Assembly: GCA_022703705.1 (NCBI GenBank)
Contig: JAKLDD010000003.1
Span: 1 to 51,766, forward strand
Reading direction: 5' to 3'
DNA from: Nanobdellota archaeon
GTDB taxonomy: Archaea > Nanobdellota > Nanobdellia > Pacearchaeales > GW2011-AR1
DNA: 51,766 nt
Made by a program: the position numbers and the translations under genes. Numbering within the stretch: the first letter of the stretch is position 1; the number at the start of each line of letters is the position of its first letter. The notes under the pieces were generated by a model. That model ran no database searches and had not been told where the DNA came from. It saw only the letters and a program-made list of their open reading frames with translations. Below, in pieces: positions 4,508 to 43,793 of this stretch.

Positions 4508-6415
4508 TTAATCAGATTTGAGATAATTTGAATTAAAAATAATCAATAAAAAAAATCCAAAAATGCTCAAAAAAATAGAAAAATAATCAAGAAAATTAGT
4601 TTTATAATAAATCAAAACCCCATTAGAATTTTCTTTAGGATAAATCGCCATAACACCTGGACCAACTTCTTTAATATTCAAAACCTCTCCAGAAGACAAA
4701 TCTTTTGCTCTCCAATTCTTATGATAAAATTCTTTAAATAAAACAACATCATCTCCATCAAAATTATCATAAGTTATTTTCAATTTATCAGGATGAACTC
4801 TTTGAACATTAGATTTTTTTATTTCTCCAAAAGCATCTTCATTTAAATTATCTACTAAAGAAATTATTGGTTTTGCATCCAAATATTCAAATAAAACAAA
4901 ACTATATCCTTTTGGATTGAATTGTTTAATAAGTTTAAATCTGTTATCATTTTCAAATTTTTCTATGAAGTCTACATCCTCATTTGCTTCAAAATATTTT
5001 ATCCCAAACCAATCAAGATAATATATAGATTTGTTTATTTCTTCAGATTCCCAAATGGTTTTAATAAAATCTCTATGAATATCTATATTTAACATACCTA
5101 CATCTTGGTATCCAAAAGTATGCTGAACGTTCGGCATAAAATAATTAATTGTCTCTCCAAAGACATATCTTGAAGTACCAAAACGATAATTAGAAAACGC
5201 GTTTTCAATTGGAAAATCTGAATCGAGAATTATTTCTTGTATAATTTCATACCTGCTTCCTTCCCTACAATAAGAATATTCATTAAAATTTTTATTTATA
5301 ATGGTAAAATTCCAAAGGATTCCGAAAAATAGAATTATCAATAATAAAAACAAGAGTATTTTCTTTGATTTTTTGATTTCATTAACAATCAAACCAAGAA
5401 AAATAGCCAATAAGATGGAAAAAGGTAAGATTATTCTAACAGGATCCATTCCAAAAGGGTAATGATTGCTTAATCCTCCAAAAAGCAGAAATGCAAAAAC
5501 AAATATCGACAACAAAATAAAAAGTAAAAATTGTTTTTTCCACAATTTTTTAAAAAAGAAAATTACCAGAGAAAAAACAAATAGAAAAGAGAGAATTCCG
5601 ATTCCACCTGCCTGCAATCCCCAACAACACTCATCAAATCCAAATAAAAATTGAATAGAAGGGACATATCCAGAAGAAGTCTCAGAAGAATTAGAATAAA
5701 AAATAAAAGGAATAAACCAAAAAGATGCTAATAAAACTGGAATTCCTCCACAAATTAAAATTTTTTTAATATTTTTTAAATTAATGCCTGTGACTAAAAA
5801 ACGAAGAATCATTAAAACTCCTATAAGAAAACCGATTAAGATATGAGTTAGAATACCTATAAAAAAAGTAAGACAATACAAAACAAAAAATTTCTTTTTT
5901 CTTTCTTTAATAAATAGTTCAAGAAAGTATAATGAAAAGGGCAAGGCCCATAATGCTGAAAAATATGGCAAATTTCCTGTAGCTATCCAATAATACGAAA
6001 TACTCAAAACAGTTAAGAAAATTAATCCAGAAAATAAAGCAATTTTCTTATTTTTAGTTAAATAATCTAAAAGCAAATATATTCCAAAAACTGCAAAAAG
6101 CAAACTTAAAAAACAAATTAAATTTGAAACAAAAAAGATATTAGAAAAAATTAAAGAAAAAAAGGCTACAAAATAATAAAACAAAGGAGAATACAATTTT
6201 AAAAATAAAGTTCCAGAATACCAGGACATATCCCAATTAGCAAAAGGGTATTCTAAAATATAAGAAACTTTGCTTAAATGACCCAAACTATCTAATCCTA
6301 ATGGTAAATTTGAAAATAAAGGCTTATAAAATAAAAAAAAAGTGAATCCAAAAAGAATCAAAAAATAAATCCAATTTTCCTTGAAAAACTTATTCATAAA
6401 GAATAAAGAACACAT
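4508..6415 (-). CDS. Large polytopic membrane protein, possible GT-C-type glycosyltransferase
   Basis: 635 aa with more than 10 predicted TM helices followed by a soluble C-terminal domain. It lies inside a glycosylation cluster. An alternative ATG at 6397 (MNKFF) is possible. Confidence 0.5.
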   Translation of the reverse strand: MCSLFFMNKFFKENWIYFLILFGFTFFLFYKPLFSNLPLGLDSLGHLSKVSYILEYPFANWDMSWYSGTLFLKLYSPLFYYFVAFFSLIFSNIFFVSNLICFLSLLFAVFGIYLLLDYLTKNKKIALFSGLIFLTVLSISYYWIATGNLPYFSALWALPFSLYFLELFIKERKKKFFVLYCLTFFIGILTHILIGFLIGVLMILRFLVTGINLKNIKKILICGGIPVLLASFWFIPFIFYSNSSETSSGYVPSIQFLFGFDECCWGLQAGGIGILSFLFVFSLVIFFFKKLWKKQFLLFILLSIFVFAFLLFGGLSNHYPFGMDPVRIILPFSILLAIFLGLIVNEIKKSKKILLFLLLIILFFGILWNFTIINKNFNEYSYCREGSRYEIIQEIILDSDFPIENAFSNYRFGTSRYVFGETINYFMPNVQHTFGYQDVGMLNIDIHRDFIKTIWESEEINKSIYYLDWFGIKYFEANEDVDFIEKFENDNRFKLIKQFNPKGYSFVLFEYLDAKPIISLVDNLNEDAFGEIKKSNVQRVHPDKLKITYDNFDGDDVVLFKEFYHKNWRAKDLSSGEVLNIKEVGPGVMAIYPKENSNGVLIYYKTNFLDYFSIFLSIFGFFLLIIFNSNYLKSD

Positions 6416-8206: not shown

Positions 8207-9733
8207 TTAAAATTTAAATCTAAGCAAAGCGCCAATTCCAGATAAATTGAAAAACTGCCTGCCCTCTTCTGTATCCGTTGAGACCATCTCAACTTTAGCT
8301 CCAGTATCATCTGCAATCTTTTTAAGTTCTTTTATTATATTTCTATCACAATCTTTTGATAGAAGCAAAGTATCCACTGCCCCGTATTCAAGTGCTTTCC
8401 TTACTGGGGATTCCTTATAAACTACAAAATCTGGTTTCTCTCCCAATGTTTCAAAAAACTTTTCCATTAATTTTTTTTCATAAACAATTTCCTGATTTGC
8501 TAGAATATCCTGCGATTTTTCAACTAACTCTTTTAAACCAGATTCATCACTCCCCCCAATATCAATTTTCCCAAGAACTTTTTTTTGCAAAAGAGTTGGC
8601 AAATATTCTCCATCTAAAAATTCATCTTTTGTAGGAATTGGGCCTCCAATTAAAATTCCCTTTAATTTTTTATTTTCATAAAAAAGATTTTTCATCTCAT
8701 CAGCTATTCTTTTATAAAATTCTTTGGTTAATCCTTCTGTTATCCTGTGAAACCTTTGAGAAGAATTATGAACAACAACGTCATTAGCAAAAAACTCACC
8801 ACATTGAACTTCAATATCTATTAAATTAAATTTACCCTTTTTTATCTTAATATCTTTAATAGCGATTTTTTCTCCAAAATTTTTCAATAAATAATCTCCT
8901 GTTTTTAATTCCTCTGCAGGAATTTTATCCACCTTTATAGTGCGAGTAATTTTATTCTTTGACCAGTTATTATTACGATCATAAATAAAAAAAAGATGAT
9001 CAGAAGAACATTCAATAGTGCTATTGTCTTCTAAAATAATTATATAAAGCAAATTTTTTTCAACTTCCCACCTTTTTAATACTTTATTATAAAAATCATG
9101 TTCTTTATCCATATGATAGGAAGAAATATCATCTCCTACAGCAACCTCATTTATAAAAATTTTGCCTTTATCTTGAACAACTACAGTAGTATCTGGACTT
9201 AAACACTGTCCACCTGCTCTTACCTTACTAGGAACTCCTGAAGTCATTTTTTGCAAAACTTCTATTCTTTTACCTTCCAAAATTCCTATTGCAGCTTCTT
9301 TTCTATCCATTACAAGCAATGCATAAATCTCTGATACTTCAAGCATCTCTTTTAATGCATCAAGAACAAATTCCTTATCACATCGATATAATCGTGATTT
9401 TAAAGGCATTGGAGGTTCAATACCCCAAATCTGTAAATCATCCTGCCCTTCTATTTTTGAAATATTTCCACAAAATATAGCCATCCCATTTTCAGGATTT
9501 CTCTTCAAATCTTTAATATATCTGACAATTTTATCCAAAGCATCCACTACATTTTTCCTTGTCGAACTGGATTTAATATTTTTAGCAGTGGATTTTTCAG
9601 CTTCAATTTGTTTTTGCACTGAAACAGCATCATAATCTGCAGGAATATAAACAGTAATAAGTTCTGTATGTCTTCCCTTGTGCTTGCTTAATTCTTCCAG
9701 CAAAATCTCTAATTCATATTTTGAAATTGCCAT
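8207..9733 (-). CDS. prf1: Peptide chain release factor aRF1, interrupted by a mini-intein
   Basis: NIKS motif (TAKNIKSSS), YRCDKEF and GGQ (VRAGGQ). The extein resumes with SSQRFHRITE after a 147-aa insertion. The C-terminal domain is typical of aRF1. Confidence 0.9.
   Translation of the reverse strand: MAISKYELEILLEELSKHKGRHTELITVYIPADYDAVSVQKQIEAEKSTAKNIKSSSTRKNVVDALDKIVRYIKDLKRNPENGMAIFCGNISKIEGQDDLQIWGIEPPMPLKSRLYRCDKEFVLDALKEMLEVSEIYALLVMDRKEAAIGILEGKRIEVLQKMTSGVPSKVRAGGQCLSPDTTVVVQDKGKIFINEVAVGDDISSYHMDKEHDFYNKVLKRWEVEKNLLYIIILEDNSTIECSSDHLFFIYDRNNNWSKNKITRTIKVDKIPAEELKTGDYLLKNFGEKIAIKDIKIKKGKFNLIDIEVQCGEFFANDVVVHNSSQRFHRITEGLTKEFYKRIADEMKNLFYENKKLKGILIGGPIPTKDEFLDGEYLPTLLQKKVLGKIDIGGSDESGLKELVEKSQDILANQEIVYEKKLMEKFFETLGEKPDFVVYKESPVRKALEYGAVDTLLLSKDCDRNIIKELKKIADDTGAKVEMVSTDTEEGRQFFNLSGIGALLRFKF
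8765..9205 (-). mobile_element. Class 1 mini-intein (147 aa, no homing endonuclease domain) inserted directly after GGQ of aRF1
   Basis: Codon TGT at 9205-9203 gives Cys1 (CLSPDTTVVV, block A). ECSSDHLFF matches block B (TxxH-like). The insertion ends FANDVVVHN (blocks F/G) with Asn at 8767-8765, and the +1 extein residue is Ser. Confidence 0.85.
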
Positions 9734-18885: not shown

Positions 18886-18977
18886 TGAGGCTGCACAGAT
18901 TTGAACTGTGGACCCCTGCCTTACTGATTTTTTGAAACTATCAGAGCAGTGCTCTAACCAGACTGAGCTACAGCCTC
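18886..18977 (-). tRNA. tRNA-Ile (anticodon GAU) with 17-nt canonical intron
   Basis: Hand-folded cloverleaf. Acceptor GAGGCTG/CAGCCTC plus discriminator A. D arm GCTC-AGTCTGGTTA-GAGC. Anticodon stem CTGCT/GGCAG with loop CT-GAT-A...A. T arm CACAG-TTCAAAT-CTGTG. CCA is not encoded. Confidence 0.85.
18922..18938 (-). other. tRNA-Ile intron (position 37/38, bulge-helix-bulge compatible)
   Basis: The intron is GTTTCAAAAAATCAGTA. Its ATCAG pairs with the anticodon-loop CTGAT, leaving 3-nt bulges at both junctions. Confidence 0.7.
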
Positions 18978-19043
18978 ATATGATTTTGTAGGCAGGATGG
19001 TTTGTTCATAGAACTTTAACCAGACTGAGCTACAGCCTCATAT
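18978..19043 (-). repeat. Leader module: direct repeat of the tRNA-Ile 5' 23 nt (19039-19017) plus 39-nt spacer (19016-18978)
   Basis: GAGGCTGTAGCTCAGTCTGGTTA occurs twice, 23/23 identical (27/27 counting the preceding ATAT). The spacer is AAGTTCTATGAACAAACCATCCTGCCTACAAAATCATAT. Confidence 0.9.
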
Positions 19044-24442: not shown

Positions 24443-26518
24443 ATGGAAAACGAGGAAGGATATTCAGAAGAAGATTATTCGTCAAGTATGCTGGAAAATG
24501 CTCCAAAAAAGAAGCCAAAATCAGAAGATTTAATAATTGAAGCTAAAAATTTCTTTAATTTTAATAAAGAAGATTTAGGGGAATCAATACGAAAAAGGAC
24601 AAATGTTGTTTTTCTTGATTTTATGAAACTTACAGAATTTTCAAATAAACTCTCTGATGAAATAATTATCAATCCAGAAGAAACCTTAAGCCTTATAGAA
24701 CAAGGAGTTGAAGAACTAGGTTTAGTAAAAAATGTACGAATTAGATTAAAAAATCTTTCAGATGCGCACCAAATTAAAATAAGAAATATACGTTCAAAAC
24801 ATCTTAATGAACTTATAATCCTAGAAGGAATAATAAGGCAGGCATCAGATGTTCGTCCACAAGTAGTAAATGCAAAATTTGAATGTCCAAGCTGTGGAAC
24901 AGTTATTTCTGTGTTACAAATTGAAAAAAAATTCCGGGAACCAAGCAGATGTTCCTGTGGGAGAAGAGGAGGATTTAGATTAATTTCAAAAGATATGGTT
25001 GATACTCAAAGATTAGTTGTAGAAGAACCTCCAGAATCTCTTTCAGGAGGAGAACAGCCAAAAAGAATTAATGTTTTTGTCAAAGAAGATTTAGTTGAAC
25101 CAAAAATGGAAGATAAAACAACTCCTGGAGCAAGAATAAAAATAATAGGAATATTGAAAGAAGTTCCTGTTCCATTAAGCACAGGAGGATTATCCACCAG
25201 ATTTGAATTAGCTGTTGAAGCAAATAACATAATTCCAATGGAAGAAACATTTGAAGAATTAGATATAACAGATGAAGATGAAAGACAAATTCAGGAACTT
25301 TCTGAAGACCCAAAAATATTTGAAACATTAGCCAAAAGCATAACTCCAAGTGTTTGGGGATATGATGAAATAAAAAAAGCATTAGTTTTGCAATTATTCG
25401 GGGGAGTTCAAAAGCAAATGTCAGATGGTTCAAAATCAAGAGGAGATATACATATTCTTCTTATAGGAGACCCGGGAGTTGCAAAAAGCGTAACTTTAGT
25501 TTTTATGTCAAATATTTCCCCAAAAGGAAGATATGTTGTAGGAAAATCAACATCAGGGGCAGGTTTGACAGCAACTGTTGTGCGTGATGAATATCTAAAA
25601 GGATGGAGTTTAGAAGCAGGAGCAATGGTTCTTGCAAATAAAGGGCTTATATGCATAGATGAATTAGAAAAAATGGACCCTCAAGACAGAAGTGCCATGC
25701 ATGAAGCAATGGAACAGCAAACAGTAACAATCTCCAAAGCAAATGTTCAAGCTACATTAAAAGCTCAAACATCTGTCCTAGCTGCAGCAAATCCAAAATT
25801 TGGAAGATTCGATCCTTTTATGCCAATACCTCAACAAATTGATTTACCCCCAACACTAATAAATAGATTTGATATAATATTTACATTAAGGGATATTCCA
25901 GATAGAAATAAAGATGAAAGAATTGCAACACATGTTTTAAAAGAACATCAGAAAGAAACAAAAGAGGTTTTAATTGATTCTAATTTATTCAGAAAATATG
26001 TCGCATATGCAAAGCAAAAAATAAATCCAAAATTAATCCCAGAATCTGTGGAAGAATTAAAAAAATTTTATATTGAACTGAGGAATAAACCAGTTACATC
26101 TGAAAGTGCAATGCGCCCAATACCAATTTCAGCAAGACAATTACAAGCATTAATTAGAATGTCAGAAGCATCAGCAAGAATGAGGTTAAGTGAAGAAGTT
26201 TCAAAAGATGATGCAAAAAAAGCAATTGAATTAATGACATATTATCTTACCCAAGTAGGTTATGATTATGAGTCAAAGACTTTTGATATTGACAAAATAT
26301 CTGGGAAATTTTCCTCATCACAAAGAAACAAAATACTCATGGTAAAAGAAGCAATAACCGCTCTTGAAAGCAAAATGGGAAAAATGATTCCGTATGAAGA
26401 AATTGAAAAAGAACTTGAAGAAAAGATAAGTAAAGATGAACTTGAAGAGGTAATAAACAGATTAATTAGGGATAATGAGATTTATCGCCCAAAAAAAGGA
26501 TACATTGGAGTTTTTTAA
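24443..26518 (+). CDS. mcm: MCM replicative helicase
   Basis: Zn finger CPSCG...CSCG, Walker A GDPGVAKS, Walker B CIDELEKM and arginine finger NRFDIIF, plus a C-terminal winged helix. No intein. Confidence 0.95.
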   Translation: MENEEGYSEEDYSSSMLENAPKKKPKSEDLIIEAKNFFNFNKEDLGESIRKRTNVVFLDFMKLTEFSNKLSDEIIINPEETLSLIEQGVEELGLVKNVRIRLKNLSDAHQIKIRNIRSKHLNELIILEGIIRQASDVRPQVVNAKFECPSCGTVISVLQIEKKFREPSRCSCGRRGGFRLISKDMVDTQRLVVEEPPESLSGGEQPKRINVFVKEDLVEPKMEDKTTPGARIKIIGILKEVPVPLSTGGLSTRFELAVEANNIIPMEETFEELDITDEDERQIQELSEDPKIFETLAKSITPSVWGYDEIKKALVLQLFGGVQKQMSDGSKSRGDIHILLIGDPGVAKSVTLVFMSNISPKGRYVVGKSTSGAGLTATVVRDEYLKGWSLEAGAMVLANKGLICIDELEKMDPQDRSAMHEAMEQQTVTISKANVQATLKAQTSVLAAANPKFGRFDPFMPIPQQIDLPPTLINRFDIIFTLRDIPDRNKDERIATHVLKEHQKETKEVLIDSNLFRKYVAYAKQKINPKLIPESVEELKKFYIELRNKPVTSESAMRPIPISARQLQALIRMSEASARMRLSEEVSKDDAKKAIELMTYYLTQVGYDYESKTFDIDKISGKFSSSQRNKILMVKEAITALESKMGKMIPYEEIEKELEEKISKDELEEVINRLIRDNEIYRPKKGYIGVF

Positions 26519-29417: not shown

Positions 29418-29930
29418 ATGATAAAATTGATTTCAGAAAAGATTACAAGGATAATCAAAAATAAAAAAAATCTTGAAAAAGATTTAAATGTAAAGATAAA
29501 AAACAGGGGCAAAGAGATATACCTTTCTGGAGAACCGGAGGATGAATATATTGCAGAAAAAATTATTGAAGCTCTTGAATTTGGATTTCCTTTTTCAACA
29601 GCAATGCTAATAAAAAAAGAAGATTTTGATTTTATGGCAATAAACATAAAAAGTTGTGCAAATCAAAAAAATCTTGAAAGAGTGCGGGGAAGAATTATAG
29701 GAAAAAACGGAAAAACTCTTAAAACCCTTTCAAATTTAAGCAATTGTAGTTTTGAGATAAAAAACAATCAAATAGGGATAATTGGAGACCCTGATTGCAT
29801 TAAAAATGCAGAAGAAGCATGTAAATTGCTATTAAAAGGCTCTAAACATGCAAATGTTTATTCTTACCTTGAGAAACATCATCCAGAACCTATTTTTGAT
29901 TTAGGGTTAAAAGAACCTAAAAAAAGATAA
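29418..29930 (+). CDS. KH-domain RNA-binding protein (Dim2/Pno1-like)
   Basis: Two KH-like units and a GXXG loop in RGRIIGKNGKTLKTL. It follows aIF1A, which is the usual archaeal position. Confidence 0.7.
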   Translation: MIKLISEKITRIIKNKKNLEKDLNVKIKNRGKEIYLSGEPEDEYIAEKIIEALEFGFPFSTAMLIKKEDFDFMAINIKSCANQKNLERVRGRIIGKNGKTLKTLSNLSNCSFEIKNNQIGIIGDPDCIKNAEEACKLLLKGSKHANVYSYLEKHHPEPIFDLGLKEPKKR

Positions 29931-29937
29931 ACAATAA

Positions 29938-29946
29938 TTTTAAATA
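29938..29946 (+). promoter_or_regulatory. TATA-box-like element upstream of the tRNA-Asn leader module
   Basis: TTTTAAATA is centred about 31 nt upstream of repeat copy 1 (29973). The spacer contains no comparable box. Confidence 0.5.
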
Positions 29947-29970
29947 AGGTTCTAGCTAACTTTGTATAAG

Positions 29971-30031
29971 ATGCCCTGGTAGCTCAGTTGGTTAAAGTTC
30001 TAAAGAACAAACCATCTTCGCCAAGGTATAT
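29971..30031 (+). repeat. Leader module: direct repeat of the tRNA-Asn 5' 22 nt (29973-29994) plus 37-nt spacer (29995-30031)
   Basis: GCCCTGGTAGCTCAGTTGGTTA occurs at 29973-29994 and again at 30032-30053, 22/22 identical (24/24 with the preceding AT). The spacer is AAGTTCTAAAGAACAAACCATCTTCGCCAAGGTATAT. Confidence 0.9.
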
Positions 30032-30153
30032 GCCCTGGTAGCTCAGTTGGTTAGAGCGCACGGCTGTTAAGCGCGAATAAGTTCGTTCATTCAACAATCT
30101 ATTCGTAAATTGCTGAAACCGTGAAGTCGTAGGTTCAAGTCCTGCCCGGGGCG
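30032..30153 (+). tRNA. tRNA-Asn (anticodon GUU) with ~48-nt intron
   Basis: Hand-folded cloverleaf. Acceptor GCCCTGG/CCGGGGC plus discriminator G. D arm GCTC-AGTTGGTTA-GAGC. Anticodon stem CACGG/CCGTG with loop CT-GTT-A...A. T arm GTAGG-TTCAAGT-CCTGC. CCA is not encoded. Confidence 0.8.
30070..30117 (+). other. tRNA-Asn intron (nominally 37/38; boundaries ambiguous by 1 nt because of flanking A runs)
   Basis: 55 nt lie between the two anticodon-stem strands, i.e. a 7-nt loop plus 48 nt. An internal helix CGAATA (30074-30079) / TATTCG (30100-30105) is visible. I could not draw a textbook bulge-helix-bulge by eye. Confidence 0.55.
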
Positions 30154-30155
30154 TA

Positions 30156-30161
30156 TTTTTT
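30156..30161 (+). terminator. Oligo-T tract after tRNA-Asn
   Basis: TTTTTT starts 3 nt after the discriminator base. Archaeal terminators are typically oligo-T tracts. Confidence 0.4.
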
Positions 30162-42659: not shown

Positions 42660-43793
42660 ATGGTATTTGAAATAAAACATAAAGATAAAAAAACATCTGC
42701 AAGGATAGGAATTCTCCAGACAAAAAAAGGAAAAGTTGAAACTCCTTTTTTTATGCCTGTTGCAACTCGTGGAAGTGTAAAAACTTTAGACTCTCATGAA
42801 CTTCAAAAAATAAAAGTTCCAGCTGTTATTTCTAATGCATTAATTCTTTCTCTAAGAGAAGGGGAAACAATAGTAAACAAATTCAAGGGGATTGGAAAAT
42901 TCATGAATTACAAAGGAATAAATTTCACAGATTCTGGAGGATTTCAAATGTATTCTCCCAGCATTTATTTAAAATCTACAAAAGAAGGGATTTTTTTTAG
43001 AAATCCTTTAAATGGAGAAAAAATATTCATGACTCCTGAAAAAAATATGGAATTACAATTAAAAATATCAAGCGAAGTTGCAATGTGTCTTGATTCTATG
43101 CCAATGTATCATAATACAACAAAAAATCAAATTGAAGAAGCTGTAAAAAAAACATCACTTTGGGCAAAAAGATGTAAGCTTCATCACGATGAATTACAAA
43201 AAGATACAAAAACAGACAAACGTCAACTTTTATTTGGAATAATTCAAGGGGGAAAATATGAAGACTTAAGAGGACTCTCAACAAAACAACTTTTAGAAAT
43301 AGATTTTGATGGATATTCTATTGGAGGTTTTGGTTTAGGGGAAACAATTGAAGAAGAATTTAACATTGTCAAAAAAGTAAAACAAATGCTTCCAGAGAAC
43401 AAACCAGTATATCTTATGGGAATTGGAAATCCAGTTGAAATATTAAAAGGAATTTCTATGGGGGTGGATATTTTTGATTCAAGAATGCCAACACAAAATG
43501 CAAGGCGGGGTTCTTTATTCACATCAGAAGGAAAATTGCGTATTCTTAGAGAAGCTTGCAAATTCGACAAAAATCCAATTGACAAAAACTGTAGTTGCTT
43601 TGTATGTAAAAACTACAGCCGTGCTTTCATCCGTTATCAGCTCATCCACGATGAATTTACAGGGAAAAAACTTGCTACATATCATAACATTTACTATCTC
43701 ACAAACCTAATAAATATAGCAAAGGAAAAAATCAAAGAGGGGAAATTCAAAGATTTCATGAAAGAAGTTGAGGGAAAGTATAAAGAAAATTAA
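42660..43793 (+). CDS. tgt: tRNA-guanine transglycosylase family enzyme, short form without PUA/C-terminal domains
   Basis: TPFFMPVAT.GSVK, TDSGGFQ, LFGIIQGGKYEDLR, FDGYSIGG, YLMGIGNP, the zinc site CSCFVCKNYSRAF...H, and HNIYY. Confidence 0.8.
   Translation: MVFEIKHKDKKTSARIGILQTKKGKVETPFFMPVATRGSVKTLDSHELQKIKVPAVISNALILSLREGETIVNKFKGIGKFMNYKGINFTDSGGFQMYSPSIYLKSTKEGIFFRNPLNGEKIFMTPEKNMELQLKISSEVAMCLDSMPMYHNTTKNQIEEAVKKTSLWAKRCKLHHDELQKDTKTDKRQLLFGIIQGGKYEDLRGLSTKQLLEIDFDGYSIGGFGLGETIEEEFNIVKKVKQMLPENKPVYLMGIGNPVEILKGISMGVDIFDSRMPTQNARRGSLFTSEGKLRILREACKFDKNPIDKNCSCFVCKNYSRAFIRYQLIHDEFTGKKLATYHNIYYLTNLINIAKEKIKEGKFKDFMKEVEGKYKEN

Follow-up and report, generated by a model that had tools for sequence, protein, structure and literature searches.

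The window, the 51.8-kb stretch of DNA (51,766 nucleotides) analyzed herein, contains only two tRNAs, and the same cassette architecture was found at both. In each cassette, tRNA nucleotides 1-21 are followed by AAGTTC-loop-GAACAAACC (the module) and then by a variable A/C-rich spacer, after which the tRNA gene itself begins. At the tRNA-Asn locus, the upstream copy of the tRNA 5' end (copy 1), which comprises the acceptor 5' strand, the D-stem 5' strand and the D-loop, lies about 23 nt (23-24) from a TATA-like box. Copy 2 is the first 22 nt of the tRNA-Asn(GUU) gene, and the whole spacer between them, module plus distal part, measures 37 nt (29995-30031). The tRNA-Ile locus, on the opposite strand, is laid out in the same way, and the region upstream of its cassette is 95% conserved in L049, one of the relatives compared. 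The coordinates of all features are collected in Table 1.

Table 1. Features of the two cassette-bearing tRNA loci of the window
Feature	Sequence	Position	Strand	Remark
TATA-like promoter box, tRNA-Asn transcription unit	TTTTAAATAA	29938..29947	+	read directly
Asn copy 1		29971..29994	+	AT + tRNA-Asn positions 1-21 (22 nt); direct-repeat search
Asn conserved module	AAGTTCTAAAGAACAAACCATC	29995..30016	+	
Asn distal spacer, variable	TTCGCCAAGGTATAT	30017..30031	+	contains CCAAGGT
tRNA-Asn(GUU), functional gene		30032..30153	+	Rfam RF00005, 55.7 bits; ARAGORN with introns allowed
tRNA-Asn anticodon-loop intron, 48 nt		30070..30117	+	boundary ambiguous by 1 nt
Oligo-T directly 3' of tRNA-Asn	TATTTTTT	30154..30161	+	likely transcription stop
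TATA-like box, tRNA-Ile unit	TTTATAAA	19063..19070	-	about 24 nt before copy 1
Ile copy 1		19017..19039	-	tRNA-Ile positions 1-21 (23 nt)
Ile module	AAGTTCTATGAACAAACCATC	18996..19016	-	3-nt loop
Ile distal spacer	CTGCCTACAAAATCATAT	18978..18995	-	homologous to L049 spacer
tRNA-Ile(GAU)		18886..18977	-	Rfam, 57.4 bits
tRNA-Ile anticodon-loop intron, 17 nt		about 18922-18938	-	hBHB read by hand

A direct-repeat search returned repeats of 27 nt (96% identity) at tRNA-Asn and 30 nt at tRNA-Ile, spaced 59 and 62 nt apart and perfectly identical over 24 and 27 nt, respectively. An earlier note on this DNA had placed TTTTAAATA at 29938-29946 and GCCCTGGTAGCTCAGTTGGTTA at 29973-29994 and 30032-30053, with a 37-nt spacer between the copies; these positions hold, but the repeat identity is longer than noted (29971-29994 and 30030-30053, AT included). 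The 48-nt tRNA-Asn intron has a homolog in L035 and none in L009, L036, L037 and L040. Default ARAGORN missed both tRNAs of the window and, with introns allowed, misnamed one of them, calling tRNA-Ile(GAU) Thr(GGU).

The cassette was also found in at least seven other archaeal genomes, at five tRNA species in all, and the module is identical or nearly so at tRNA-Asn, Ile(GAU), Ile(UAU), Lys(UUU) and Lys(CUU) of other genomes. Its carriers are some tiny (DPANN/Woesearchaeota-type) archaea, in which one or two cassettes per genome were found, each ahead of its matching tRNA; in all archaeal loci examined, the module was confined to this fragment-module-tRNA context. Cassette-bearing strains with complete or near-complete genomes include GCA_043815085.1 and the MAGs CAZTCF01, CAZOAN01 and CAZNIA01, and the organism of the window is present in JGI 3300009771, 3300025902 and 3300009776 and in ENA ERZ795054/55. 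A chance similarity or an assembly artefact, for which the AT-rich background and nothing more can be cited, is already refuted by these other genomes, by a module pattern expected 0.00 times in shuffles, and by an Asn arrangement that is identical in six independent assemblies from different samples and thus is not a product of assembly. The view that the two loci do not represent one repeat family copied around is not supported either, since the D-arm strand and the module form one family and the locus-specific portion is the 7-nt acceptor part only.

The copy number of the cassette is polymorphic at the syntenic Asn locus: there are no copies in L035, L036, L037, L038, L040, L044/45 and L047/48, one in the window and in L009, and two in L039. 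Two cassettes are likewise present at three tRNA-Lys loci, one of which has diverged spacers and an identical 47-nt copy plus module. Copy 1 of the window occupies the position of the tRNA 5' end in cassette-free relatives, as judged from the empty sites of L035 and L038. In L038, which has a KH protein 92% identical to that of the window and a near-identical upstream sequence, GGTTA runs directly into GAGCGC. A promoter box, aacaataattttaaataagg, lies downstream of the KH gene in relatives and, where the L009 cassette is inverted, has moved along with the tRNA, and the homologous box of the cassette-free L035 lies 24 nt before the tRNA itself. Because the box stands at about the same distance from copy 1 in the window as from the tRNA in the cassette-free relative, the sequence comparison shows that 59 nt (29995-30053; module, spacer and a second copy of nucleotides 1-21) constitute a DNA insertion between the promoter and the tRNA-Asn body. 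Copy 1 has changed in two relatives, by G3A and a 19-nt insertion in L049 and by A9T in L009, and copy 2 is intact.

Two explanations of where cassettes arise were rejected. The D-loop sequence GGTTA (versus GGCTA in L035-L037) does not predict a cassette, as GGTTA is present without one in L038, L040, L044 and L047. Nor is the cassette a tandem duplicate of the promoter region, the similarity of the module to each upstream flank being at chance level.

Conservation is unevenly distributed along the insert. The module is 82-100% conserved between orthologs, whereas identity falls to 46-54% when the Asn distal spacer is compared with its orthologs in L009 and L039. No variation is seen in the GTTC/GAAC stem or in most of the module, and differences between modules are located in the hairpin loop, 3 or 4 nt in length, to which the earlier note had correctly confined them. 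In the Asn cassette, GTTC (29997-30000) and GAAC (30005-30008) form the inner hairpin, and AACCA of the module (30010-30014) is predicted to clamp TGGTT in the D-loop of copy 1 (29989-29993). In L049 the latter helix is GGGTT/AACCC instead of TGGTT/AACCA, a compensatory double change from U-A to G-C. The two inner helices are 98.9% paired over ten cassettes. Given the lack of variation in the stem and most of the module, the comparative argument for the structure depends on this one compensatory event, and a single such event was matched by 114 of 500 shuffles. The near-invariance of the module could alternatively reflect recognition by a protein. The proposal that the module is conserved and structured, and not junk, is supported by its near-identity at five tRNA species and with the compensatory change in the D-loop/module helix.

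The cassettes were predicted to fold with energies of -13.5 to -23.5 kcal/mol, and z was -3.0 to -3.1 versus shuffles in the three cassettes tested (window Asn, window Ile and L049). The ensemble energy with the native spacer lay below that with a shuffled spacer (z -0.5 to -6.1). The antisense strand folds as stably as the sense strand, so folding does not distinguish an RNA hairpin from a DNA hairpin and leaves room for a DNA-level or antisense role.

It had further been proposed that the distal spacer pairs with the acceptor strand of its own tRNA in a compensatory, tRNA-specific manner. The pair counts on which this was based are correct (CCAAGGT with GCCCTGG, five Watson-Crick pairs plus one G-U; CTGCCTA with GAGGCTG, five of seven), but they are not statistically unusual, the matches of spacers to their own acceptors (5-6 of 7) having p values of 0.09-0.87 versus random 7-mers. 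Foreign acceptors often pair with a spacer as well as its own acceptor or better; the Asn acceptor, for example, is the better partner of the Lys spacer CAGGGC. In a swap test, the own copy was best in only four of nine cases. Acceptor-specific covariation was thus rejected by both tests, and the reproducible partner of the spacer is the D-arm strand, which is common to all these tRNAs.

When the full precursors were folded at equilibrium, the acceptor 3' strand was paired with copy 1 (P = 0.58-0.99), and the native precursor fold lies only 2-5 kcal/mol above the fold with copy 1 in the acceptor stem. Since copy 1 outcompetes the true 5' strand at equilibrium, a clamp would be needed. Shuffling the module caused no consistent drop in the equilibrium share of the native fold, a share that is already low with the real module.

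Runs of three or more T are absent from all ten cassettes (59-86 nt). The distal spacers contain 11 A-runs and no T-run, versus 16 A-runs and 20 T-runs in the flanks just upstream, and at the Asn locus oligo-T occurs only 3' of the tRNA, the leader from copy 1 onward having no such run. This difference between cassettes and flanks argues for read-through transcription of the cassette as a 5' leader. A second promoter within the cassette was rejected, as TATA-like stretches, read by hand, lie at inconsistent positions (centres at about -21 to -35 nt) where present and are missing from the rest.

In archaeal bulge-helix-bulge (BHB) introns, the two strands each contribute a 3-nt bulge that contains a splice site; a 4-bp helix lies between the bulges and further helices flank them, unless the relaxed BHL form is adopted. 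Were the insert such an intron, the true first exon would be copy 1; the splicing endonuclease would excise the 59 nt through copy 2 as a circle, and a leaderless transcript would need no RNase P. In favor of it, the promoter position suits initiation at copy 1 or immediately ahead of it, tRNA introns are spliced in this organism (each tRNA of the window has one), and equilibrium folding puts copy 1 in the acceptor stem. This reading is nevertheless very improbable. With the BHB topology defined as an outer helix, a 4-bp helix and an NN|N bulge per strand, and with the topology of the window Ile anticodon intron followed by hand, the in-register splice-site flanks are identical, not complementary. 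Only AGCT could self-pair, without flanking helices, and a version anchored in the D-stem fails because it needs AGTT to pair with TTGG. The loops of the module (3x1 and 2x1-2 internal loops, with a 5-bp helix) are not staggered bulges either. Moreover, a copy 1 that is mutated in two genomes, L049 and L009, cannot be an exon. An intron with a BHB in the D-loop or at position 7/8 was ruled out on these two grounds, and with it went the EndA substrate and 59-nt circle that the earlier note had implied. Relatives without a cassette add a further objection: their conserved promoter box often lies 42-63 nt before the tRNA and, if it is their promoter, their leaders would be about 15-40 nt long and the clade would need a 5'-processing activity.

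Comparison with known RNA classes gave no ribozyme or other Rfam family for the cassette, which also speaks against the intron. The cassette alone had no tRNA match, and no other Rfam family was found at E up to 10 except noise. A permissive cmscan of 29930-30040 detected no self-cleaving ribozyme (hammerhead, twister, pistol, hatchet or HDV-like), its only matches being noise (U6atac, E 0.55; a lncRNA, E 4.3). A K-turn was rejected because the bulge precedes GU, not GA; an H/ACA RNA, because a pseudouridylation pocket would not fit into the small internal loops; and a C/D RNA, because there are no C/D boxes. The genes are not split tRNA genes, as every cassette has an entire tRNA gene behind it (Rfam, 55.7-73.9 bits); in the window, RF00005 matches above the gathering threshold lie at 30032-30153 and 18977-18886. 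A CRISPR-like array does not fit, the "spacers" of two-cassette arrays being identical or homologous to each other. The cassette is like non-canonical BHB introns and the split or permuted tRNA genes of Thermoproteales and Nanoarchaeum in that the interruption falls in the D-arm region and a 5' fragment is followed by sequence able to pair near the junction, and like archaeal "intron transposition" in that similar inserts occur in different tRNAs. It differs from BHB-intron and split tRNA genes in having no BHB or BHL at its borders, a whole uninterrupted tRNA downstream, and an upstream fragment that is mutated in some genomes.

A DNA-level origin is more probable than an intron, although we still regard it as unlikely. 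On this view, a recombination system that targets tRNA genes in their 5' part would have left the cassette as its footprint or would use it as a recognition site. The direct repeats would have arisen as att-like or target duplications, the enzyme would bind the imperfect palindrome TGGTTAAAGTTC-loop-GAACAAACCA, and the RNA fold would be incidental. Integration into a tRNA gene classically leaves the inserted DNA between direct repeats of a tRNA segment, an arrangement seen at the borders of the cassette insert. In addition, L009 and L050 show inversion of tRNA cassettes, the neighbours on either side being conserved, L007 and L050 carry short insertions duplicating 13-17 nt of tRNA 3' ends, a LAGLIDADG ORF adjoins the L050 locus, and the hairpin is as stable on the antisense (DNA) strand. 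Against this, no integrase, transposase or other mobile-element gene was found near any cassette-bearing locus examined, where 37-63 nt separate the repeats and the neighbours are housekeeping genes. A copy of fragment plus module was absent from searches of IMG/VR, INPHARED and PLSDB: the IMG/VR pattern scans and BLAST against the other two gave only chance matches, in coding regions or to the tRNA part, in collections where DPANN elements are poorly represented, and offered no support for a viral or plasmid attP. A mobile element would also have to account for a restriction to one or two cassettes per genome, always before the matching tRNA, and for a right-hand part of the insert that is not conserved between tRNAs. 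A loop of 3 or 4 nt would be poorly tolerated by a dimeric DNA-binding site, and the strand-specific absence of T-runs points to a constraint on the transcript.

With the tRNA-targeting integrases of archaeal viruses and plasmids (SSV and pNOB8 types), it is usually the 3' part of the tRNA that becomes duplicated, and the copies enclose kilobases of DNA that include the integrase gene. The cassette shares with these att duplications the tRNA-segment repeats around foreign DNA and the regeneration of an intact tRNA, but no such element or attP-like copy was found in the loci and collections examined. Template-switch (quasi-palindrome) mutations, known from bacterial genetics, create fold-back duplications. 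The cassette, in which a short centre and then an imperfect reverse complement of the D-arm strand stand between two copies of tRNA nucleotides 1-21, resembles such a product, and copy 1 of L049 holds a fresh, perfect 8-bp palindromic insertion; however, the same 15-nt centre at five different tRNAs is not expected from template switching. Full-text literature searches found no description of the architecture, so that the cassette, though real, is apparently undescribed. Its nearest counterpart is the tRNA-Thr-F/tRNA-Thr-II pair of Caldiarchaeum subterraneum (Sugahara et al. 2012, PMC3293823), in which the 5' fragment ahead of the intact tRNA-Thr was tied to the insertion of a mobile element, a 1.9-kb recombinase-bearing segment; this case speaks for a DNA-level origin. 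There, too, a copy of the tRNA 5' part (nucleotides 1-27) stays by the original upstream region, the insert supplies a replacement 5' part, and the state is polymorphic in the population (PMC3293823). The Caldiarchaeum insert is 1,868 bp long, encodes a putative recombinase and occupies several genomic places (PMC3293823), whereas the cassette insert is 59-86 bp long, is non-coding and has no mobile-element gene nearby; moreover, the cassette has a conserved hairpin, fused exactly to D-loop position 21, and can be tandem.

The reading that we favor, at roughly even odds, is a co-transcribed leader cassette with a self-locking hairpin that is removed by a 5'-processing enzyme. In this reading, the site of transcription start, folding during transcription, cleavage by RNase P and a "safety-catch" reason for conservation are inferred. 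Transcription would begin at the old start site, a few nucleotides before copy 1, and the polymerase would pass through the cassette without termination and into the tRNA. The nascent cassette would fold back on itself, the GUUC-loop-GAAC stem nucleating the hairpin; AACCA would clamp UGGUU of the duplicated D-loop, and the next bases of the spacer would zip up part of the duplicated D-stem/acceptor strand. The clamp would stop this decoy 5' strand from rivalling the true 5' strand (copy 2) for the 3' half of the tRNA, and RNase P, or an enzyme equivalent to it, would then remove the structured leader by cleavage at G30032. The need for such an enzyme is suggested by the apparent long leaders of cassette-free relatives. 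No genes for RNase P RNA or protein or for EndA were found within the 52-kb window. The cassette is dispensable; recombination between the direct repeats would remove it cleanly or add a second copy, and the clamp would be under purifying selection for as long as the cassette is present.

A purely "neutralised accident" of this kind leaves unexplained the identical 19-nt core at Asn, Ile and Lys genes. The leader RNA may instead be functional, selected because it regulates certain tRNAs or takes part in their processing, acting as a two-state switch that gates 5' processing with the decoy locked or invading, as a docking site for a sequence-specific RNA-binding protein, or as the source of a stable leader RNA like a tRNA 5' fragment. 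Engineered RNase P riboswitches (PMC7897497) similarly place a leader hairpin by the cleavage site, so that alternative pairings free or block 5' processing, and structured 5' leaders thereby control access of RNase P. Those devices are synthetic and ligand-driven, whereas the cassette is natural, copies the 5' strand of its own tRNA, and has no known ligand or regulator. The module is almost invariant even though neighbouring proteins are 68-77% and the adjacent spacer 46-64% identical, two-cassette arrays persist in three diverged Lys loci, and the two precursor folds are nearly isoenergetic. The host tRNAs serve the two most abundant residues here, Lys (11.3%) and Ile (9.5%), as well as Asn (5.8%), but this association is equally explained by the common D-arm sequence. 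A selected function is nevertheless doubtful: most relatives with the same locus have no cassette, one of them at 92% KH identity; copy 1 is decaying in L049; and no partner protein or target is known.

Partial duplications of tRNA genes are usually read as scars of integrating elements, and tRNA leaders are usually assumed to have no features of note. The present cassette unites a partial duplication with a conserved hairpin in one compact unit that recurs at several tRNAs, has lasted across genus-level divergence, is present in zero, one or two copies, and bears marks of transcription. On the practical side, such cassettes yield pseudo-tRNA fragments and mislead tRNA finders. If the favored leader cassette does nothing but neutralise itself, it would be a natural example of a harmful duplication tolerated in an essential single-copy RNA gene, and a live intermediate for models of how interrupted, split and rearranged archaeal tRNA genes arise. 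More speculatively, and rather improbably, it may be a cis-acting conformational gate on tRNA maturation, in which the hairpin, perhaps with a protein reading the invariant sequence, picks the decoy or the true 5' strand, thereby determining how much tRNA is made for the most frequent codons of these AT-rich genomes with single-copy tRNAs, or releasing a stable, functional leader RNA like a tRNA 5' fragment. If the cassette does gate processing, it would represent a new kind of tRNA regulation.

The description of the two tRNA loci in the earlier note agrees exactly with the sequence of the window. The Asn locus (see the table) ends with oligo-T directly 3' of the tRNA, and the Ile locus is built alike, from a 23-nt 5' segment of its own tRNA and a module unlike that of Asn only in the hairpin loop. 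No other short-range repeats in the window relate to a tRNA; the module is expected by chance 0.00 times, and an identical Asn arrangement occurs in six assemblies, each from different samples. The window (29% GC) is an archaeal fragment with housekeeping genes typical of DPANN (MCM, TBP, DNA ligase, aIF2-beta, aIF1A, KH/PNO1-like, FtsZ and several aminoacyl-tRNA synthetases), and its closest relatives in public data are MAGs labelled Woesearchaeota, Pacearchaeota, Diapherotrites or Nanoarchaeota. Rfam detected exactly two tRNAs and placed them correctly; each has an anticodon-loop intron. ARAGORN found neither by default and both when introns were allowed, but tRNA-Ile(GAU) was then named Thr(GGU) and its intron misplaced.

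Features of the window and their positions
Feature	Position	Strand	Basis or remark
TATA-like box, Asn locus	29938-29947	+	read from sequence
AT + GCCCTGGTAGCTCAGTTGGTTA, first occurrence (copy 1)	29971-29994	+	Asn locus
AAGTTCTAAAGAACAAACCATC, between the Asn copies	29995-30016	+	read from sequence
TTCGCCAAGGTATAT, between the Asn copies	30017-30031	+	read from sequence
AT + GCCCTGGTAGCTCAGTTGGTTA, second occurrence	30030-30053	+	Asn locus
tRNA-Asn(GUU)	30032-30153	+	Rfam
Anticodon intron of tRNA-Asn	30070-30117		48 nt
tRNA-Ile(GAU)	18977-18886	-	Rfam
aRF1 (peptide chain release factor) gene	8207-9733	-	Hint/intein insertion inside
MCM gene	24443-26518		without intein
TGT-family protein	42660-43793	+	377 aa, tRNA-guanine transglycosylase catalytic domain only

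Among related archaeal loci compared with the window, the MCM genes of L036 and L037 carry intein/LAGLIDADG insertions, and that of L035 is larger (1032 versus 691 aa), with no intein domain reported. The archaeal TGT family modifies G15 of the D-loop, a base that is among those duplicated by the cassette.

Gene order KH, tRNA-Asn, MnmA is conserved among relatives, with no cassette in L035, L036, L037, L038, L040, L044/45 and L047/48, one in the window and L009, and two in L039. L038, whose KH protein is 92% identical and whose upstream region is nearly the same, reads ...aagatGCCCTGGTAGCTCAGTTGGTTAGAGCGC and lacks the cassette. The anticodon intron and promoter box aacaataattttaaataagg of the window recur in L035; there the box is 24 nt away from tRNA +1, and in the window it precedes copy 1 by 23 nt. 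This spacing, together with the cassette-free state of L038 and L035, shows that copy 1 marks the former position of the tRNA 5' end and that the module, the spacer and the second copy, 59 nt in all, have been added. The cassette is an insertion, and a dispensable one. Since the Asn spacers of the window, L009 and L039 are homologous (TTCRC...AAGGT), it is of long standing there; its scattered presence is consistent with precise losses on several occasions, and a doubling now and then, through direct-repeat recombination.

Species-representative genomes and metagenome contigs were each scanned once for the module pattern. Cassettes were found at tRNA-Lys(UUU) (two in tandem, in L007, L033 and L034), tRNA-Lys(CUU) (one, L010), tRNA-Ile(UAU) (one, L027) and tRNA-Asn (one, L009, the same as L028); matches beyond tRNA loci were chance matches in coding regions. 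Retrieval by synteny, independent of the pattern, added two loci: L039, with two tRNA-Asn cassettes and a variant module ending in CCTCC, and L049, a tRNA-Ile(GAU) with a variant module. The layout is constant in every case, nucleotides 1-21 of the downstream tRNA being followed by the module, a variable spacer and the complete tRNA, with the module joined directly to the final D-loop base. In ~230 kb of DNA from related archaea, no module was found outside this context. The D-arm TAGCTCAG(Y)(Y)TGGTTAGAGC is common to all host tRNAs; the tRNA-Glu adjoining the L027 cassette has a different D-arm and no module. The leader of this tRNA-Glu(UUC) (L027, 1720-1840) is apparently ~57 nt long, its start (GAGCCTTAAGCC) is similar to the first bases of the adjacent tRNA-Ile(UAU) (GAGCCTATAGC), and it contains TAGGGT, which is complementary to GCCCTG of the Glu acceptor; these resemblances could be due to chance.

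Every cassette is predicted to fold as one long imperfect hairpin, capped by GUUC-loop-GAAC; a 3x1 internal loop comes next outward, and then UGGUU/AACCA, which links the duplicated D-loop with the module. The outermost part is a variable pairing of the duplicated D-stem/acceptor strand with the first spacer bases (CUGAGC with GCUCAG in L010; CUGA or CUG elsewhere). Between orthologous cassettes, identity is 82-100% in the module, 91-100% in copy 1 (50% in L049 owing to an insertion), 46-87% in the distal spacer and 50-95% in the upstream flank, and module variation is confined to the loop (TAAA, TAAC, TAGC, TAT) and the 3' edge. The one informative change is in L049, where tRNA-Ile and its copy 1 have the D-loop GGGTT, not TGGTT, and the module has AACCC, not AACCA, a U-A pair thus becoming G-C. 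The module is rightly regarded as a structured element, as had been proposed. Pairing in the two inner helices reaches 98.9% among 10 cassettes, and a single break stands beside the one compensatory event; this covariation is statistically without force, the same count being reached by 114 of 500 shuffles.

The proposed pairing of each spacer with its own acceptor strand fared less well and is wrong or at least unproven. The best 7-nt match of a spacer to its own acceptor strand has 5-6 pairs, a score reached by 9-87% of random 7-mers, and acceptors of other tRNAs pair with the spacers equally well or better; CAGGGC in the Lys(UUU) spacer matches the Asn acceptor at every pair. Native spacers lower the ensemble energy of the cassette relative to shuffled ones (z -0.5 to -6.1), and much of this gain is due to the D-arm strand, which all hosts have in common and with which the spacers pair. 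In swaps of copies and spacers, the own combination was best in only 4 of 9 cases, so that co-variation with the tRNA-specific part is unproven. Some segments of the spacers, moreover, look like 3' acceptor strands in decay (e.g. CCAAGGTATAT versus CCGGGGCGTAT), so descent fits as well as function.

Release of a 59-nt circle by a splicing endonuclease, also put forward in the earlier note, is wrong or at least unproven. The anticodon intron of the window tRNA-Ile served as the local model of a BHB, in which the anticodon stem continues into a 4-bp helix (CUGA with intron UCAG) followed by NN|N on each strand. An intron joining copy 1 to the tRNA body would have the same sequence in both central strands, of which only AGCT could self-pair, and it lacks flanking helices; a BHB anchored in the D-stem would need AGTT paired with TTGG. 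In the module itself, a 5-bp helix lies between internal loops rather than staggered 3-nt bulges. Copy 1 is moreover mutated in L049 (G3A and a 19-nt perfect-hairpin insertion) and L009 (A9T), so the mature tRNA must derive from copy 2. The L049 insertion (locus positions ~1772-1790) is a perfect 8-bp palindrome, CAGAAGGT-TAG-ACCTTCTG, which separates C13 from A14 in copy 1; the 38 nt upstream are 95% identical to the window, and it looks like a recent hairpin-type (template-switch) event. A permissive Rfam scan of the cassette revealed no ribozyme or other family. The tRNA-Asn anticodon intron of the window has a homolog in L035, has as counterpart only an unrelated 14-nt intron in L039, and is absent from L009, L036, L037, L040 and L047. 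No canonical hBHBh' could be drawn for it, and a broad-specificity endonuclease may be needed.

Transcription of the precursor probably includes the cassette. T-runs of three or more are missing from all 10 distinct cassettes (59-86 nt), and no promoter was found by hand-reading at a constant distance before copy 2, TATA-like stretches being centred at ~-21 to -35 nt or absent. Distal spacers have 11 A-runs and 0 T-runs of three or more (T 23%, C 20%); flanks just upstream of copy 1 have 16 and 20 (T 45%, C 7%). As oligo-T is a termination signal for archaeal RNA polymerase, this strand-specific absence is the outcome expected of selection for read-through. The sense and antisense strands fold with equal stability; the evidence for read-through makes it likely that the hairpin forms in RNA, with a DNA hairpin as the less likely alternative. 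Cassette-free relatives often have the conserved box 42-63 nt before the tRNA. If it is their promoter as well, leaders of ~15-40 nt are normal in the clade, and a 5'-processing enzyme must exist; none is encoded in the 52-kb window. Unrelated small hairpins lie between this box and tRNA-Asn +1 in the cassette-free L037 (CAGCAT-gaa-ATGCTG, ending at G+1), L044 (TAAATC-cttt-GATTTA) and L040 (GGCT...AGCC), and leaders with structure may be usual here.

Whole precursors, from copy 1 through the discriminator base, were folded at equilibrium. The acceptor 3' strand pairs with copy 1 at a probability of 0.58-0.99, and no more than 2-5 kcal/mol separates this from the less stable native fold, whose acceptor stem contains copy 2; the native fold is the minimum for the Asn precursor with 3 nt of trailer. 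A free copy 1 would therefore be a real competitor. Because the cassette hairpin is complete before the tRNA 3' half is made, we infer that it would trap this decoy strand co-transcriptionally, which would give a reason for purifying selection on the pairing of AACCA with the duplicated D-loop while the cassette is present. The all-or-none pattern, with cassettes intact or cleanly absent and the decoy of L049 disabled, agrees with such trapping. With shuffled modules, the equilibrium shares of the precursor folds showed no consistent change. The most likely reading, to which we give about an even chance, is that the cassette arises by partial duplication, locks itself in the co-transcribed leader and leaves with it. 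A selected regulatory role for the cassette and a DNA-level role in recombination are less likely rivals, each of the same weight.

As to its origin, the surroundings of the cassette-bearing loci contain no gene for an integrase, a transposase or another mobile-element protein, fragment plus module was not found in virus and plasmid entries of IMG/VR, INPHARED and PLSDB, and comparison with upstream flanks ruled out a diverged copy of the local promoter region. The identical 19-nt core before five tRNAs sharing the D-arm suggests that cassettes may pass between such genes, the acceptor part then being converted by the neighbouring tRNA. The nearest published case is in Caldiarchaeum, where a 1.9-kb recombinase-bearing insertion left a tRNA-Thr 5' fragment upstream of the intact gene (PMC3293823); no description of the cassette architecture was found in the literature. 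Other rearrangements occur among the relatives. The tRNA-Asn unit (promoter, cassette and tRNA) is inverted between KH and MnmA in L009 (250-920) and L028 (5560-6320), unlike in the window and all other relatives. In L050 (1700-2440), from the same genome as L039, tRNA-Ile is inverted relative to dUTPase and adjoins a free-standing LAGLIDADG_3 ORF (1982-2437); the upstream repeat, at a distance of 45 nt, covers no more than the 7-nt acceptor strand of this tRNA, and the final 13 nt of the tRNA (CTGTGCAGCCTCA) recur ~70 nt downstream. L050 and L007 have short insertions next to which 13-17 nt of the tRNA 3' end are duplicated. The latter is 85 nt long (~5500-5585, minus strand), lies directly 3' of tRNA-Lys(UUU) and is absent in the related L033; it ends with a 17-nt duplicate of the tRNA 3' end (AAATCCCTTCGGGGCCA), holds the T-loop region in inverted form (GGATTTGAAC) as well as AGGTGTCGAG as a degenerate direct copy, and is a 3'-side counterpart of the 5' cassette. 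The cassette is real and conserved, undescribed as far as the literature searched shows, and it resides in genomes whose tRNA loci are clearly restless.
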